A DNA stretch of 64,000 nt from Anaerolineae bacterium (lineage in GTDB: Bacteria > Chloroflexota > Anaerolineae > Anaerolineales > E44-bin32): positions 62,670 through 126,669 of the forward strand of contig BTQZ01000002.1 in the NCBI GenBank assembly GCA_036986135.1, written 5' to 3'. Position numbers and translations under genes: made by a program. Of this stretch, positions 7,740 to 14,069 are shown piece after piece. The notes below the pieces were generated by a model that had not been told where the DNA came from, ran no database searches, and saw only the letters and a list, made by a program, of their open reading frames with translations. Position 1 is the stretch's first letter, and each line of letters opens with the position of its first letter.

Positions 7740-9497
7740 ATGAGCACGATACTTGAGGCCGATACCCTACTGGCCGTAGATGTGGGAACGGTAAACACTC
7801 GCGCCAGCCTATTTGACGTGGTGGACGGGCGATACCGAATGGTGGCCACGGGTCGCGCGTCATCAACGGCTGGGGCTCCGCTATTCGATCTTCGAGAGGG
7901 TATGCAGGTCGCCCTGGACGAAGTGAGTGAGATCACGGGAAGGCACTTTTTCGACGAATCAGAAGCGCTCGTCATGCCCACCACCGCCAGCGGAGCCGGT
8001 GTGGATGCATTTGTCTCGACTGCTTCCGCTGGCCCCCATGTCCGGACGGTGCTGGTTGGACTTATGCCTGGCGTTTCGATAGAAAGCGCCCGTCGCTTGG
8101 CTAGCTCAACTTACCTGAATGTAGTAGACGAGATTGGCCTGATGGATCGGAGGCGGGAAGAGGCGCAATTGGATGTGATGCTCGCCGCGATGCCGGATCT
8201 CATCCTGATGGTGGGTGGCACGGACGGTGGCGCTACCGCCAGTGTAATTCGACAGATCGAGACGGTGAGTCTGGCCACGAGTCTGCTCCCCACCGCTCGG
8301 CGCCCCGCGCTGGTATTTGCAGGTAACACCAGTCTCGGAGCAGCGGTCATGGAGCGTTTTCAGGACCGCTCGGCGGTGGCGGTGGTCCCGAATATCCGTC
8401 CCGACCTAGAGCAAGAAGAGCTCGGACCGGCGCGCCTGAAACTGGCTGAGATCGTCAATGAATTTCGCTCGCAGCGCATTGCTGGATTCAATGACCTCAA
8501 TGGATGGTCCGGCGGACACACAATGCTCACAGCGGACGCCTTCAGTCGCGTGGTGCGCTACCTGAGTCAGGTGTACGACCCTGATAAAGGTGTATTGGGG
8601 ATCGATGTCGGTGCGGCTCACGTAACCGTGGCGGCGGCTTTTGATGGCAAGCTAAACAGCAAGGTGCACTCAGACCTGGGTCTCGGGATTTCCCTTCCCG
8701 GTCTCCTTCGCTACGCATCCGTTTCCGATGTTTCTCGCTGGCTCCCCACGGATATCACAGAGGCTGATGTGCGTGACTACATCTTCAACAAAGCTATTTA
8801 CCCTGGCACGATTCCCGCCGAGCTGTCCGATCTGCACATCGAATACGCGCTCCTTAGGGAGCTGGTTCGAGCCGGCATTTCGCTCTCCAGAGGCGAATGG
8901 GCGGAGGGTGCCTCCTCCGAATTGATGCCGCCTCTGGAACCCATCATCGCCAGTGGCGGGGCGATCGCTCGCGCTCCTCGGCCCGGATACGCGGCGCTTG
9001 CGCTGCTGGACGCCGTTCAACCGCGCGGCATTACCACGTTGGTTCTGGACCCCTATAACTTAGTTCCCGCGGTGGGGGCTGCGGCGAGCTTGTTTCCGAT
9101 GATCACAGTACAGGTGCTGGAGTCCGGCAGCTTCGTCAGCCTGGGAACGGTTGTTTCGCCGGTTGGACGGAGCCGACCGGGACGACAGGTGCTTCGCATC
9201 CGCATCGAGCCTGAGAGCGGCGGCGAGCCGATCGAAGGAATCGTTCGCTACGGTCAGCTTGTCCTGCTTCCGCTTCGTCAGGGAGAACATGCTCGCATGA
9301 CATTGAGGCCGGAAAAAGGATTCGACGTAGGTTTCGGCGGACGAGGCAAGGCAGGAGCGCTGCGAATTGCGGGAGGGGCATTAGGAGTCATTATTGACGC
9401 GCGCGGCCGGCCAATCGAATTATCCAAAGATCCCGAACGTCGAAGAGAGCTCAATCAGAAGTGGCTCTACGATATTGGAGCTATGCTCCAGGGCTAA
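7740..9497 (+). CDS. MutL-family (glutamate mutase L-like) actin-fold (ASKHA) ATPase-like protein
   Basis: Phosphate-1-like LLAVDVGTVNTRASLFD, LILMVGGTDGGATASV (my recollection of the MutL/PF13941 hallmark), second GIDVGAAHVTVAAA. No glutamate mutase S/E genes nearby. Confidence 0.6.
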   Translation: MSTILEADTLLAVDVGTVNTRASLFDVVDGRYRMVATGRASSTAGAPLFDLREGMQVALDEVSEITGRHFFDESEALVMPTTASGAGVDAFVSTASAGPHVRTVLVGLMPGVSIESARRLASSTYLNVVDEIGLMDRRREEAQLDVMLAAMPDLILMVGGTDGGATASVIRQIETVSLATSLLPTARRPALVFAGNTSLGAAVMERFQDRSAVAVVPNIRPDLEQEELGPARLKLAEIVNEFRSQRIAGFNDLNGWSGGHTMLTADAFSRVVRYLSQVYDPDKGVLGIDVGAAHVTVAAAFDGKLNSKVHSDLGLGISLPGLLRYASVSDVSRWLPTDITEADVRDYIFNKAIYPGTIPAELSDLHIEYALLRELVRAGISLSRGEWAEGASSELMPPLEPIIASGGAIARAPRPGYAALALLDAVQPRGITTLVLDPYNLVPAVGAAASLFPMITVQVLESGSFVSLGTVVSPVGRSRPGRQVLRIRIEPESGGEPIEGIVRYGQLVLLPLRQGEHARMTLRPEKGFDVGFGGRGKAGALRIAGGALGVIIDARGRPIELSKDPERRRELNQKWLYDIGAMLQG

Positions 9498-9500
9498 ATC

Positions 9501-10568
9501 ATGATCGCCAATCACTTGCCGCGTACCAGACATATCTTGCCCATGACAAGGGTGCAACGCGAGCGGAAGCTCGATGGACCCGGTGTTTTGACCGTCAGGG
9601 TAAGGGAAAAGGTACAGTCGACCGATGTGATCGCCGAAGTGCAACCGCAGCCGCAACATCACTTTCTCGATCTGGCCTCCGCCTTAGGTGTTTCGGATGC
9701 GGAGGCGGCGCGCCTGCTGCGGGTGGACCTGGGGAGCGACGTGGAGGCGGGCCAAGTGTTGGCGGGCCCGGCCGGGATCGCAAGGCGCACAGTTCGTGCC
9801 CCAGCTAATGGCAAGGTGCTTTCCCTCTCTAGAGGCCGAGTGCTATTCGAAGCTCGCGAAGCGGCGCGCGCAGTTCACGCAGGGGTGCCGGGGGAGGTCA
9901 CCGCCTCCGATGGCGCGCGCTCGATCATCATCTCGGCCGTCGGGGCGCTTGTCCAAGGAGCATGGGGAAACGGCCGCCGGGGATGGGGAGTATTGCGTGA
10001 CGTGGGTGAAAGTCGGAGTGCGCGGTTGGAGCCTAACGAACTCGACATGATTCTTCGAGGCGCGGTTGTACTAGTAGGAGTGGTCGATAATCCTAAGTCT
10101 CTTCATCAAGCCACTGAAATTCCAATCCGCGGCCTGGTATGTGGAAGTATGGCGTCGGAGCTTATACCCACCGCATTGCACATGTCATATCCGATCTTGT
10201 TGACGGAGGGTTTTGGGGCAATCCCGATGAACTCCCCGTCCTACGACCTGCTGAGCACCAATGCGGGAAGGGAAGCGAACGTGGAAGCGTCGCTGCTGGA
10301 ACCCTATGAGACTCAACAGCCCGAGATCCTGGTACCGCTCCCTGCCACGCAGGACCTTATGAATCCGGAACGAATCGTGCAACTGTTGCCTGGAGTGCGG
10401 GTGCGGGCCTTGAGAGCGCCTCATGTCGGGGCGGTCGGAAGCTTGCTGCATTTGATGCCGGGGGTCGAGTCCTTCCCAAGCGGCATATTGGCGCGCAGCG
10501 CGATGGTCGAGCTGGAGGGGATTGGCTCCGTCGCAGTGCCGCTGAGCAACTTAGAAGTGATTGCTTGA
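9501..10568 (+). CDS. Hypothetical protein with N-terminal lipoyl/barrel-sandwich-hybrid-like segment
   Basis: VEAGQVLAGPAGIARRTVRAPANGKVLSL resembles the hybrid motif of biotinyl/lipoyl-type or HlyD-type barrels. The rest is unassigned. Confidence 0.5.
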   Translation: MIANHLPRTRHILPMTRVQRERKLDGPGVLTVRVREKVQSTDVIAEVQPQPQHHFLDLASALGVSDAEAARLLRVDLGSDVEAGQVLAGPAGIARRTVRAPANGKVLSLSRGRVLFEAREAARAVHAGVPGEVTASDGARSIIISAVGALVQGAWGNGRRGWGVLRDVGESRSARLEPNELDMILRGAVVLVGVVDNPKSLHQATEIPIRGLVCGSMASELIPTALHMSYPILLTEGFGAIPMNSPSYDLLSTNAGREANVEASLLEPYETQQPEILVPLPATQDLMNPERIVQLLPGVRVRALRAPHVGAVGSLLHLMPGVESFPSGILARSAMVELEGIGSVAVPLSNLEVIA

Positions 10569-10660: not shown

Positions 10661-11245
10661 ATGGCAGAAGACTTTGAAGTTACTGGGGGGCTGCCCGAGG
10701 ACGGTGAGAATCGCACCTTTGTAATTGCGGCCGCTGGGCTCGGAGGCTTGATCGTGCTGAGTCTCGTATGTCTGGGGGTCTACGCCCTAGTCTTGCAGCC
10801 GCGGCAGCGCGAGGCTGCCTTGCAGCAACCGACCAGTATCGTTCTCACAAATACGGCTGTCGCGCTCGGTCTGACGCAGACCGCGGAGGCAGAGGATTTT
10901 ACGCCAATACCCACGGAGCCGCCTCCGACATTCACACCTGCGCCCTCTGACACTCCGGTGCCGACTCAGGTGGTTGTGCTGCCAACAGACACCCCCACTC
11001 CTACCCCATTTACGACGTTGCCAACGGTGGCGCCCCTAACGGCCACCGCGGCGGCCCAGATGACGCAGACCGCATTGGCGATCGCGGGCGGGGCCGGGTC
11101 GCCCACACCTCATCCAACGGCGCTCCCCGTAGCCGGCTTTGCTGATGATGTTGGACTGCCCGGATTGGCGGGGCTGGCGGGGCTATTCTTGGCGGCGATT
11201 TTCCTGACCAGGAGGCTGCGGTCGAGAACCACGCCTGCAAGATGA
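10661..11245 (+). CDS. Pro/Thr-rich protein with N-terminal TM and C-terminal LPVAG + hydrophobic + RRLRSR tail
   Basis: SD GAGGGGAGGA upstream. N-terminal TM FVIAAAGLGGLIVLSLVCLGVYALV, PT-rich linker, C-terminus LPVAGFADDVGLPGLAGLAGLFLAAIFLTRRLRSR (sortase-signal-like). Confidence 0.6.
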   Translation: MAEDFEVTGGLPEDGENRTFVIAAAGLGGLIVLSLVCLGVYALVLQPRQREAALQQPTSIVLTNTAVALGLTQTAEAEDFTPIPTEPPPTFTPAPSDTPVPTQVVVLPTDTPTPTPFTTLPTVAPLTATAAAQMTQTALAIAGGAGSPTPHPTALPVAGFADDVGLPGLAGLAGLFLAAIFLTRRLRSRTTPAR

Positions 11246-11261
11246 TTGAATAGCGAACCAC

Positions 11262-11295
11262 AAAAGGGGCCGCGCATGGCTGCGCGGCCCCTTTT
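11262..11295. terminator. Bidirectional intrinsic terminator between convergent genes
   Basis: AAAA-GGGGCCGCGCA-tggc-TGCGCGGCCCC-TTTT, an 11-bp perfect stem. Confidence 0.75.
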
Positions 11296-11317: not shown

Positions 11318-11821
11318 TTAGTCTGGCAGGCCGAGCTTGGCCAACGTTTCGAACAGCTGCGCGACGCCGTTTCCGTCCAGCGCGCTGGTCTCCAGATATG
11401 GGGCTTGGAGTGAGTCGGCAAATTGCTGCGCCTGCTCTGGCCGTTGGGTGCGTTCCAGATCAATCTTGTTGCCTACCACGATGAATGGTTGCTGCTCAAC
11501 CGCCTCGAGAATCTCGTCCCTCCAGCGGGCGAGGCCAACGAAGGATTCGGGTTCCGTCACGTCGTATACCAGGGCTGCGGCACGGCTCCCGCGATAGAAG
11601 CCCGCGCGTATGACCTGGAAACGATCCTGACCCGCCATGTCCCAGATCGAAAGCTTGACGGTTTGCCCGGTCAGATCTACAGTCTGTGTCTGAAAATCGA
11701 CCCCAATCGTGGCCACGCGGGTCTGTTCGAATTTCCCTTCACAGAAACGCCGAATCAGCGACGTCTTACCGACATTGCCATCGCCTGCGACGACTACCTT
11801 CAAGACGGGAACGCTGTTCAA
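11318..11821 (-). CDS. Ras-superfamily small GTPase, Rab-like (prokaryotic, no prenylation Cys)
   Basis: G1 GDGNVGKT, switch I TIGVDF, G3 WDMAGQDRF, G4 GNKIDL, G5 ETSAL. TTG start 3 nt after the upstream stop. Confidence 0.85.
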   Translation of the reverse strand: MNSVPVLKVVVAGDGNVGKTSLIRRFCEGKFEQTRVATIGVDFQTQTVDLTGQTVKLSIWDMAGQDRFQVIRAGFYRGSRAAALVYDVTEPESFVGLARWRDEILEAVEQQPFIVVGNKIDLERTQRPEQAQQFADSLQAPYLETSALDGNGVAQLFETLAKLGLPD

Positions 11822-11824
11822 GGG

Positions 11825-12556
11825 CTACTGGTGACGACCGAGAAAATACTTATGGGGAAATACGAGTTCATCCGGATCGACGGGTGGGTTGCCTAGCAAG
11901 GTTCGGTTGGCCCGCTCAAATAGCAGATGAAGTTCCTCGAGCGATTCCAATTGATCGGCGGCGGGGTCCGTTGAAAATAATGTCATGAGGGTCGTGAACT
12001 CTCCCGGCACATAGGCAAGCCACCGCCCGCCTTCGATCTGAGTCGATTGCATGCCGGCGCCGAAGATTTCCTTTGTGGCAGCCCGGTAAGAAGAAAGCAT
12101 CGGAATGGCCAGTTCCGCCTCGATCTGAAATTCTCCGATGGTGTTGAGCGGCATACCAGAATCGTTATCATAGACCGAATACCCAAGCACCTTTGCAACG
12201 TTCTTCTGGCGGATGACCACACTCTTGCCTTCGGTGGTGGCCGCTTTCCATTCCTCTGAATCCGGCGACATTTCGACGTACCGCTTCACAGTCTGCTGCT
12301 CGCGGCGATAGTGATCGTACAGTTCTTGGAATTGGGCGCGGTTTATCTCACCCGTGGCAAACTCCTCGGCCAGCCTGTTGATCTTGCCCTGGACCCGATC
12401 CAAGTACTCCTGGGGGTTTTCAAGCGGTGATGGATCGCTGTCTGTAGTGGGCTGCGGAGGAGTCGCCACAGCGGCCCCTTGCTGAGGTGCTGCGGGGGCC
12501 GCCGGTGACTGGGGCTGGGTATCGCCCGAAATGAGGTCGCGTAGGCGTCTTAACAT
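11825..12556 (-). CDS. Coiled-coil protein with C-terminal Roadblock/LC7-or-longin-like alpha/beta domain (GTPase partner)
   Basis: Start moved to ATG 12556 (MLRRLRDLISG), which removes the overlap with the PGM gene and sits 21 nt below TGcTATAAT. Q/P/A-rich N-terminus, helical YLDRVQGKINRLAEEFATGEINRAQFQELYDHYRREQ, C-terminal mixed fold. Confidence 0.55.
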   Translation of the reverse strand: MLRRLRDLISGDTQPQSPAAPAAPQQGAAVATPPQPTTDSDPSPLENPQEYLDRVQGKINRLAEEFATGEINRAQFQELYDHYRREQQTVKRYVEMSPDSEEWKAATTEGKSVVIRQKNVAKVLGYSVYDNDSGMPLNTIGEFQIEAELAIPMLSSYRAATKEIFGAGMQSTQIEGGRWLAYVPGEFTTLMTLFSTDPAADQLESLEELHLLFERANRTLLGNPPVDPDELVFPHKYFLGRHQ

Positions 12557-12577
12557 AACGATTACCCGATCGCGGGC

Positions 12578-12586
12578 ATTATAGCA
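12578..12586 (-). promoter_or_regulatory. Extended -10 promoter TGcTATAAT for the GTPase operon
   Basis: Reverse complement of attatagca reads TGCTATAAT. 21 nt upstream of ATG 12556. Confidence 0.5.
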
Positions 12587-12620: not shown

Positions 12621-14069
12621 CTAGTCCGCTTGAGCCACCTGACGGCCGTATTCGAGCAAAGACTCGAGGTCTCCGGGCTCGCGAGCTTCAGCGTAAACAC
12701 GGAGCAGCGGCTCCGTTCCGGAGGGTCGGACGAGCAGCCACGAATCGTCTTCCATATGGAATTTCACTCCATCCCGGTTGCTAACGCGCTCTACCTGGAG
12801 CTTGCCGATAGCCTCTGGAGCGCCGTCAACGAGCCGCGAGGAGAGCTGTTCCTTGGGAACCGGTCGCGACAGCCGCAAGTCCAAACGCCCGTAATGCGAG
12901 GGCCCGACATCCTTCACGAGCTCGCCGACCAGATCTTCCAACGTCGATCCAGTTGAGGCGACCATTTCCAATACCAGCAGGCTGATGAGGATTCCATCGC
13001 CTTCCGGGATATGGCCCTTGAAAGAGATGCCTCCAGACTCCTCGCCCCCGATAAGCACGTCTTCGCGCAGCATACAATCGGCGATGTGGTCGAATCCGAC
13101 CGGGGTCTCTATGACCTCCAGACCATACTTCTTGCCGAGCCGATTGATCATCTGGGTCGTCGATACGGTCTTGACGATTTTGCCGCTCCAACCCCGCTGC
13201 TCCACCAGGTATTTCAACGCCAACGACATCAGCCGATGTGGATCGACGAACTCTCCCCGCCCATCCATGGCTCCGATCCGATCCGCATCTCCATCCGTAG
13301 CCAGACCAAGCTGACCGTGACCTGCCGCGATGCATCCGGCCAGTGCTCCTAGATAGCGAGCGATAGGCTCGGGGTGAATTCCTCCGAAACCGGGATTCAT
13401 CTCACCTCGCACCTCCGTTACTTCGCATCCCGTTCCCTGGAGGATCCCCTTGATCTGACCACGACCCGATCCATACATGGAATCCACTGCAATGTGCTGA
13501 GGGTTTTCGGCAATAGCATCGAAATCGATCAGGGTGCGCAGGTGATCATGGTAGCTCGCAGTGGGATTGAAACGTTCTATCAATCCCGTTTCCTTTGCTT
13601 GCCCGTAGTCCATTAGGTTCGGACCCCGACCGCGAGATTCATTATCGTTGAAGTAGAACTCGACCCGACGGCACTGCTCCCTTGCGGCGGCACCTCCGTA
13701 GGCGGCCTTGAGCTTGAGCCCGTTGTAGCGCGGCGCATTGTGTGAGGCGGTGATCATGATGCCCGCCATCGCGCCCAGGTTACGCACGGCATATGAAATA
13801 CAGGGGGTCGGAACGTCGGCGCTGGTCAAATAGACCTTGATTCCGTTCCCGGCCAATACGCGTGCCGCCTCAACTGCGAACCGATCGGAGAGGAAGCGTG
13901 TGTCGAACCCGATAACCACTCGTCGCGCATCCGGAGTCAAGGTCCCGTTATGCCATTCATCTGCCGCAACGGCGTCCGCAATTGACTGGCTCACGAGACG
14001 CACGTTGTGAAAGGTAAAGGTGTCCGATATGACTCCCCGCCATCCATCGGTTCCAAAGGTTATCGGCAT
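12621..14069 (-). CDS. Phosphoglucomutase/phosphomannomutase family protein
   Basis: Active-site loop ITASHNAPRYNGLK, metal loop ATDGDADR, sugar loop GGEESGG. GGAGG SD upstream. Confidence 0.9.
   Translation of the reverse strand: MPITFGTDGWRGVISDTFTFHNVRLVSQSIADAVAADEWHNGTLTPDARRVVIGFDTRFLSDRFAVEAARVLAGNGIKVYLTSADVPTPCISYAVRNLGAMAGIMITASHNAPRYNGLKLKAAYGGAAAREQCRRVEFYFNDNESRGRGPNLMDYGQAKETGLIERFNPTASYHDHLRTLIDFDAIAENPQHIAVDSMYGSGRGQIKGILQGTGCEVTEVRGEMNPGFGGIHPEPIARYLGALAGCIAAGHGQLGLATDGDADRIGAMDGRGEFVDPHRLMSLALKYLVEQRGWSGKIVKTVSTTQMINRLGKKYGLEVIETPVGFDHIADCMLREDVLIGGEESGGISFKGHIPEGDGILISLLVLEMVASTGSTLEDLVGELVKDVGPSHYGRLDLRLSRPVPKEQLSSRLVDGAPEAIGKLQVERVSNRDGVKFHMEDDSWLLVRPSGTEPLLRVYAEAREPGDLESLLEYGRQVAQAD

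Follow-up and report, generated by a model that had tools for sequence, protein, structure and literature searches.

Does the gene immediately upstream of a Rab-like small GTPase in an Anaerolineae genome encode the dedicated regulator of that GTPase? The question is raised by a stretch of 64,000 nucleotides (hereafter the window; contig BTQZ01000002.1 of assembly GCA_036986135.1, positions 62,670 to 126,669), which comes from a genome of 2.9 Mb and 84% completeness in the class Anaerolineae, and in which a partner protein of an unannotated family and a small GTPase are encoded one after the other on the minus strand. For the bacterial small GTPases outside MglA (the 'Rup' GTPases) we know of no characterised member and no known regulator, and full-text literature searches for this cassette returned no description of it.

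Our reading, to which we give a probability of roughly two in three, is that the cassette is a GTPase switch together with its cognate regulator platform, the partner binding the switch face of the GTPase and setting its nucleotide state. Judged from the sequences, the two genes appear to be co-inherited and co-transcribed, and they are probably also coupled in translation. GTPases of this kind are known already, as are Roadblock/longin-GTPase modules in Myxococcus, actinobacteria, Asgard archaea and eukaryotes. What appears to be new is a dedicated longin-type partner for a bacterial Rab-like GTPase, as suggested by structure prediction, along with the previously undescribed sequence family to which this partner belongs and the minimal two-gene form of the cassette.

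The GTPase and its family

The five G motifs that the first-pass annotation had attributed to the GTPase, including the eukaryote-like TIGVDF, WDMAGQ and NKID, are borne out by the sequence: G1 reads GDGNVGKT (residues 13-20), the G2 Thr is Thr38 within TIGVDF, G3 is DMAGQ (61-65), G4 is NKID (118-121) and G5 is TSA (145-147). The catalytic set is complete by sequence (P-loop, switch I Thr38, DxxGQ with Gln65, NKxD and SA). As the same annotation had stated, there is no C-terminal Cys lipidation signal: Cys27 is the sole Cys, the chain ends in LGLPD about five residues past the last helix, and neither a prenylation signal nor the prenylatable C-terminal Cys tail of eukaryotic Rabs is present, the orthologues being of the same length.

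The protein is already named 'Rab family GTPase' automatically in databases, and its matches agree with that name. Against Pfam it scores 166.1 bits for Ras (PF00071; cut-off 21.6), 109 for Roc and 44 for Arf, and it scores 98.1 bits against TIGR00231. The 60 best sequence relatives in the PDB are all Rab, Ypt or Sec4 proteins, headed by Ypt1/Rab1 (E 4e-38) and including a Thorarchaeota Rab (2e-33). Pereira-Leal and Seabra reportedly gave the eukaryotic RabF1-F5 motifs in 2000 as IGVDF, KLQIW, RFrsiT, YYRGA and LVYDIT; measured against this consensus, the GTPase matches with IGVDF (5/5), KLSIW (4/5), RFQVIR (3/6), FYRGS (3/5) and LVYDVT (5/6). The nearest clusters outside Chloroflexota in a protein-language-model atlas are Asgard, which is a lead only. 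Ras-family relatives (E <= 1e-10) occur in 88 of the 301 sampled genomes of the class.

The residue before Thr38 is Ala37, and an Arg (Arg35) stands three residues before Thr38, in T-R-V-A-T-I-G. The arginine finger of G-alpha proteins has the same offset, three residues before the switch I Thr, in the near-motif R-V-x-T-x-G. Arg35 is conserved in all aligned Rab-like sequences of the class except two (loci L052 and L054). These two GTPases have DLAGG in G3 and a Tyr replacing the Arg before the switch I Thr, and they fit the description of Group 1 Rup (PMC4316618).

MglA proteins have TVPGQ or GTPGQ in G3; next to the G2 Thr they have an intrinsic Arg finger in Group 1, and Groups 2-5 have Thr-Thr instead (PMC4316618). 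With WDMAGQ, and hence DMAGQ instead of T/GTPGQ, and with no Arg adjoining the G2 Thr, the GTPase is on its motifs not of the MglA type, which agrees with its placement outside MglA in the first-pass annotation. A separate MglA-like GTPase, with FGTPGQ in G3 and a Pfam Ras score of 37 bits, is encoded in the same genome (L002, G000:C68:39-578); its gene lies at the beginning of a short contig, and contigs C3 and C28 are the sites of two Robl_LC7 genes. Group 1 Rup proteins, for their part, are described as having no G3 Gln and a four-gene neighbourhood with coiled-coil, OmpA-domain and GGDEF/EAL or histidine kinase genes (PMC4316618). Here Gln65 is present and conservation across lineages is confined to the two cassette genes; since the G3 Gln is kept, the GTPase is, by the same kind of comparison, not a Group 1 Rup either.

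The partner and its predicted fold

The partner has no sequence match in Pfam, NCBIfam or the PDB. A Pfam search with 39 members of its family, even at E = 5, found no Pfam family consistently matched and no longin profile match. The family, although genuine, is a small one: 378 homologues were found in a collection of 5.8 billion proteins, the named ones being 'hypothetical' and from Anaerolineales/Chloroflexi, and a profile search among 1.84 billion representatives returned 311 clusters at 50% identity. In the protein atlas, all partner clusters are labelled 'hypothetical protein' of Chloroflexota.

An AlphaFold2 model was built on the 39-sequence alignment, with a mean predicted local distance difference test score (pLDDT) of 80 and values exceeding 90 in the folded regions. 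In the model, residues 1-47 are disordered, with low pLDDT. The C-terminal domain begins with a short helix (111-119), followed by strand-strand-helix-strand-strand-strand-helix-helix to the C-terminus, the last helix having a pLDDT of 53-79 only. The best 50 Foldseek matches in the PDB all belong to the longin/Roadblock superfamily and include Sec22b, TRAPP subunits, AP sigma, LAMTOR, dynein LC7, a Streptomyces Roadblock protein and MglB. In VIA-align comparisons, the longin class gave Z 11.8 for the longin domain LD1 of Fuzzy (root-mean-square deviation, rmsd, 2.9 over 118 residues), 11.7 and 10.8 for Sec22b, 10.3-10.9 for VAMP7, 10.7 for TRAPP (TRAPP and Mon1-Ccz1 together ranging from 8.6 to 10.7) and 10.5 for a Loki longin, while the Roadblock class gave 9.8 for LAMTOR2, 9.7 for an Asgard Roadblock protein and 9.5-9.8 for MglB (rmsd 2.4-2.7 over 97-99 residues). 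Independently of Foldseek, 48,161 representative chains were searched, and here too the longins (Z 11.8-10.3) came ahead of Roadblock/MglB (Z 9.7-9.4); the first 31 rows were all of the longin/Roadblock superfamily, after which came a GAF/PHY domain.

The features of the Roadblock and the longin fold are both found in the domain as predicted, and the extent of the alignments distinguishes them. Longin alignments run through the C-terminal helices to residue 242-243, and Roadblock alignments cover the shared core only, with the Roadblock N-terminal helix outside the aligned range. In longins, C-terminal helices pack where Roadblock proteins have their N-terminal helix (PMC10933270). Since the matches extend through the C-terminal helices and the Roadblock N-terminal helix is unmatched, the C-terminal domain is best described as a predicted longin-type domain, nearer to longin than to Roadblock. 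The earlier proposal of a Roadblock or longin fold for this domain thus fared well in the model. The accompanying description of a low-complexity N-terminus followed by a long helix held for the first part, which is Pro-rich and disordered, and failed for the second, where the model shows a helical hairpin.

Conserved positions cluster in two places (numbering of the window's protein). In the hairpin, the turn and the second helix have invariant Gly69, Gln75 and Tyr83 and near-invariant Asn72 and Phe76, and the helix after the last strand has invariant Pro198, Phe213 and Glu214 and near-invariant Gln202, Ala216 and Asn217. The family alignment contains no invariant Arg. The N-terminal motif has a net charge of +2 to +5 and a helical hydrophobic moment of 0.5-0.84, which is unexceptional against shuffles, and its role as a membrane or partner anchor is conjecture. 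Short members of the family are without the whole N-terminal region. Among the diverged relatives, homologues at 26-32% identity (L014-L020, family f32) are short, have neither the N-terminal motif nor the linker, occur where no Rab-like GTPase was found, and are divergently oriented from a neighbouring conserved ~330-aa gene that matches alginate lyase weakly. A highly diverged paralogue (L025, G000:C5:42578-43135), at 32% identity and with a long acidic N-terminal extension and a long branch in the tree, is found in the genome of the window itself.

This anatomy would also suit a partner that is an effector, adaptor or tether and not a catalytic regulator, placing one nucleotide state of the GTPase, for example at a membrane, in the way that Ragulator scaffolds the Rags and SNARE longin domains work without touching nucleotide turnover. 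We consider this unlikely. Speaking for it are the non-catalytic longins among the best structural matches (Sec22b, VAMP7, Ykt6 and AP sigma), a GTPase without a lipid anchor, the conserved basic-hydrophobic N-terminus and long flexible linker of the partner, and its lack of an invariant Arg. However, neither the ordinary amphipathic moment nor the short family members without an N-terminal region favour a tether, and MglB, the only characterised bacterial Roadblock partner of a small GTPase, alters nucleotide turnover (PMC4316618).

The fold also invites comparison with the polarity module MglA/MglB and with conservons of the actinobacterial type, in that a bacterial small GTPase stands beside a protein of Roadblock-superfamily fold and MglB matches the partner model at Z 9.5-9.8. 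That the cassette is such a system in disguise is nevertheless very improbable: to the G2 and G3 motifs described above can be added the Pfam Ras score of 166 bits, where the MglA-like protein of the same genome scores 37 bits, the presence of separate Robl_LC7 genes in the genome, the failure of the partner in Pfam Robl_LC7 and in profile-profile comparison with Anaerolineae Roadblock proteins, and the lack of any histidine kinase or DUF742 gene in the cassette.

Conservation and expression of the pair

Two samples were used to follow the pair, one of 300 other genomes of the class and one of a single genome per species among closer relatives of the partner. In the class sample, the partner family was present in 17/300 genomes, and the GTPase lay directly downstream of the partner in two only (G053 and G167, loci L009 and L010). 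The one-per-species scan gave 22 partner loci at 49-95% identity, 17 of which have the GTPase immediately downstream in the same order, with gaps of -20 to +21 nt. The remaining five comprise one locus at a contig end, three related genomes with the partner alone and one genome in which no GTPase was found. All three genomes with a lone partner have a GTPase orthologue (65-68% identity) elsewhere, and in one of them a second paralogue of the partner comes before this GTPase (L084). In the other context seen for the unlinked GTPase (L082 and L083, genomes G301 and G302), it lies directly 3' of a gene for a membrane protein of 257-263 aa without a Pfam match, which is conserved in both.

The paired loci fall into 12 diverged lineage groups, and because all of these have just two gene families in common, the partner and the GTPase, with no third conserved component, the cassette has moved between genomic contexts as a pair. 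Conservation of neighbouring genes, for example those for phosphoglucomutase and glycerate kinase (DUF4147/MOFRL), is limited to close relatives. The linked forms of the GTPase fall into one clade of 21 in its tree (support 87), with two unlinked forms nested inside and L009 and L010 apart, and the partner tree has a matching clade of 23 rows (support 96). The subclades L075/78, L076/77, L079/80, L066/67 and the window group are common to both, and the trees are congruent. Conservation as a unit, which the first-pass annotation had put forward for checking, is therefore seen in the adjacency at 17/22 species-level loci, at L009 and L010 and at L084, and in the agreement of the trees. That first picture needs correcting in one respect, as the partner family is wider than the pair and the GTPase orthologues of some lineages have no adjoining partner.

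Sister GTPases provide a further comparison. Among the other Rab-like clades of the class, the closest ones carry a fused response-regulator receiver (REC) domain or an unassigned N-terminal extension. In G013 (L125, G013:C1:1669000-1680000), a DUF4388(PATAN)-Roadblock gene and a gene for a Roadblock-like protein of 390 aa are followed by an N-terminally extended Rab-like GTPase. In G038 (L126, G038:C44:26000-39500), a hybrid GAF-PAS histidine kinase and an OmpR-type regulator precede a REC-Ras fusion, with a DUF4388-Roadblock gene and weaker Roadblock-like ones 3' of this REC-GTPase and then a second, Roadblock/MglA-like module. To judge by these domain assignments, Rab-like GTPases of Anaerolineae are repeatedly accompanied by Roadblock-superfamily proteins. 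A census in 2014 found 0/121 GTPases of the Rup clade coupled to MglB (PMC4316618); in contrast, the Rab-like GTPases of Anaerolineae do adjoin Roadblock genes.

Several observations weigh against the reading of the partner as a cognate regulator. Nothing at sequence level ties it to Roadblock: none of the 39 family members has a Robl_LC7 (PF03259) hit, and hhalign of the family against 31 Anaerolineae Robl_LC7 proteins gave a probability of 0.8% (E 0.07), so that the link to the fold comes from predicted structure. Nine orthologous GTPases in the class sample (50-59% identity), often beside hpt and tdk, are without an adjacent partner, and in five of these nine genomes no partner was found with this query. 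Some genomes in which no Rab-like GTPase was found have distant partner homologues (26-33% identity), and the paralogue L025 is unlinked, with no adjoining GTPase. Further, an AlphaFold2 model of both proteins as one read-through chain, with the TAG as Gly, has confident domains and a predicted template modelling (pTM) score of 0.50 and no confident relative placement of the domains; it was made with a mixed paired and unpaired alignment and, as a single chain, cannot represent a 2:1 complex.

Taken at their strongest, these points would mean that the two genes share an operon without their products interacting, the function of the partner being unrelated to GTPases and the adjacency an inherited, lineage-specific accident. 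Those partner homologues, of family f32 among others, that occur with no Rab-like GTPase and lie near alginate-lyase-like, HflX and FtsZ genes would fit such an account, as would the GTPase orthologues without an adjoining partner and the lack of a confident interface in the fusion model. We hold it to be distinctly unlikely, however, since order and tight spacing are kept through changing contexts across 12 diverged lineage groups that have no other conserved genes around the cassette, genomes with unlinked copies retain both genes, in one of these genomes the GTPase is paired anew with another partner paralogue, and the fold recurrently partners small GTPases, with canonical Roadblock genes adjoining the sister GTPases.

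The organisation of the locus is that of a compact two-gene transcription unit on the minus strand, from 12586 to ~11262 (Table 1). The extended -10 element proposed ahead of the pair by the first-pass annotation, TGcTATAAT at 12578-12586, was found again as the sole TGNTATAAT match on both strands of the window (0.51 expected window-wide), and a TGnTATAAT box is present at the same place in 13/14 orthologous loci, even where the flanks diverge, including three unlinked partner genes. A promoter scan requiring a -35 match did not have this site among its output. The partner starts at the ATG at 12556, which is backed by orthologues with the same M-[LF]-K-R-L-R beginning, and ends with a TAG at 11825-11827. 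A longer reading frame from a GTG at 12700 was rejected, as it would cross the promoter and enter the upstream gene. The GTPase starts with a TTG at 11821, orthologues beginning at the same residue, several with ATG, and the gap between the two genes is the 3 nt (CCC) noted before. Because no obvious Shine-Dalgarno sequence is found at this spacer, coupling of the two translations by termination and reinitiation is likely.

Table 1. Coordinates of the features of the two-gene cassette in the window.
Feature	Position	Strand	Remarks
Extended -10 element TGCTATAAT	12578..12586	-	21 nt 5' of partner ATG; -35 weak
Partner gene, 243 aa and TAG stop	11825..12556	-	Unannotated Chloroflexota family
N-terminal basic-hydrophobic motif MLRRLRDLISG	12524..12556	-	Family consensus M-[LF]-K-R-L-R-x-[LF]
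Pro/Ala/Gln-rich linker, aa 12-47	12416..12523	-	Predicted disordered, pLDDT <50; length varies widely in family
Helical hairpin, aa 48-67 and 73-96	12269..12415	-	AlphaFold2 pLDDT ~95
Longin/Roadblock-fold domain, aa ~111-243 (predicted)	11828..12226	-	AlphaFold2 model, Foldseek, VIA-align
Spacer CCC, 3 nt, between partner TAG and GTPase TTG	11822..11824	-	
Rab-like (Rup-type) small GTPase, 167 aa	11318..11821	-	G domain only, no lipidation tail
Intrinsic terminator hairpin, 15-bp GC-rich stem	11262..11295	-	3' of GTPase stop; -38.3 kcal/mol, z -6.5 against shuffles

Programmed read-through of the partner stop into a fusion protein was also considered and rejected. The stop is TAG in 12/18 loci (the window and L060-L080) and in frame with the GTPase in 10/18, and with about 4/10 independent lineage groups in frame the rate is near the one third expected by chance. 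Near-identical hairpins occur 3' of the GTPase gene in the closest relatives, and the terminator hairpin, which lies between an A-tract and a U-tract, is probably bidirectional, serving both the GTPase and the convergent gene at 10661-11245. On the plus strand of the window, at 7740-10568, lie a gene for a 585-aa protein of Pfam 'MutL' (PF13941, 187 bits) and, 4 nt after it, a 355-aa gene with a weak RnfC barrel-sandwich match only; next comes a gene for a Pro/Thr-rich membrane protein of 194 aa, convergent on the GTPase terminator.

Proposed working and known systems

In the working that we propose, a single extended -10 promoter would drive a bicistronic mRNA ending at the intrinsic terminator. 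Its first product would be the regulator or platform, made up of a basic N-terminal motif, a Pro-rich tether, a helical hairpin and a longin/Roadblock domain, and its second, made by coupling 3 nt downstream, would be a Rab-like G domain that has the full catalytic set. Characterised longin/Roadblock-GTPase pairs are MglB-MglA, Ragulator-Rag, TRAPP, Mon1-Ccz1 and Fuzzy-Inturned with their Rabs, and SRX-SRbeta. By analogy with every one of these, the partner is likely to bind the switch face of the GTPase and to control its nucleotide state, probably as a dimer, and the basic motif on its Pro-rich tether could anchor the complex, unremarkable as its amphipathicity is.

As to the kind of control, the lack of an invariant Arg in the partner and the conserved Arg35 and Gln65 of the GTPase make us lean towards an MglB-like GTPase-activating protein (GAP) that would reposition the intrinsic catalytic residues, to which we assign somewhat less than half of the weight, with about a third for a role as guanine nucleotide exchange factor (GEF) or as scaffold. 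A more far-reaching version, a minimal bacterial longin-Rab cassette with a dedicated GAP or GEF, an intrinsic arginine of the G-alpha style in Arg35 and Ragulator-like membrane placement of the unlipidated GTPase, is possible and in our view rather doubtful. If true, it would mean that the Rab/longin logic predates the archaeal-eukaryotic lineage, or that it was exchanged between Chloroflexota and Asgard archaea.

The cassette offers a candidate cognate partner of a Rup-type GTPase that can be read from a minimal and widely conserved two-gene operon. The pair is small, soluble and tractable (167 aa and 243 aa) for examining longin-type action on a Rab-type G domain, simpler than TRAPP or the tri-longin GEFs, and it adds a bacterial data point to the discussion of how GTPase regulation in eukaryotes arose. 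For annotation, it contributes a new sequence family of ~300 clusters that is restricted to Chloroflexota.

Among known systems, the cassette resembles MglA/MglB of Myxococcus xanthus and Thermus thermophilus, where MglB is a Roadblock homodimer and the GAP of MglA, in being a bacterial two-gene combination of a Ras-superfamily GTPase and a protein of Roadblock-superfamily fold, with an intrinsic Gln and possibly Arg in the GTPase and no conserved Arg finger in the partner. It differs in that the GTPase is Rab-like (DxxGQ), with its Arg three residues before the G2 Thr and not adjacent to it, and in that the partner shares no sequence similarity with MglB, is closer to longin topology as predicted, and has an extra N-terminal motif, linker and helical hairpin.

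Eukaryotic longin regulators of Rabs include Fuzzy-Inturned/CPLANE for Rab23, Mon1-Ccz1 for Rab7 and TRAPP Bet5/Trs23 for Ypt1. They are the best structural matches of the partner, and their clients are of the Rab type, as is the GTPase here, the nearest solved relatives of which are Ypt1/Rab1. In contrast to these multi-longin heterodimers, the 243-aa partner contains just one longin-like domain; sequence homology is lacking, the GTPase is unprenylated, the bacterial host has no endomembranes, and GEF activity is a candidate role only. Ragulator (LAMTOR) with the Rags and the conservons (CvnB/CvnD; MfpD/MfpB) are likewise Roadblock-fold platforms for small GTPases. In Ragulator, an N-terminal anchor borne on a flexible segment provides the tether to a membrane, a role that is conjecture for the N-terminal motif of the partner, and both systems differ from the cassette in having GTPases of other families (Rag, CvnD/MfpB) and more components.

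With the Rup family of Wuichet and Sogaard-Andersen (2014), the GTPase shares a non-MglA character, eukaryote-like G1-G5 motifs and a single domain of less than 240 aa. Rup proteins have been reported in Chloroflexi, and Rup Group 2 is crenarchaeal (PMC4316618). As the GTPase keeps the G3 Gln and is without the four-gene neighbourhood, unlike Group 1, and does not belong to the crenarchaeal Group 2, it would fall among the 'unclassified' Rup. Asgard archaea have an operon of a LAMTOR1-like Roadblock protein, a Rab-like GTPase and a DENN protein (bioRxiv 10.1101/2020.10.19.343400; PMC10933270), which likewise links a prokaryotic Rab-like GTPase to a protein of the Roadblock superfamily; the cassette described here differs from it in its Chloroflexota host, in having two genes and no DENN, and in a partner that belongs to a distinct, Chloroflexota-restricted family.

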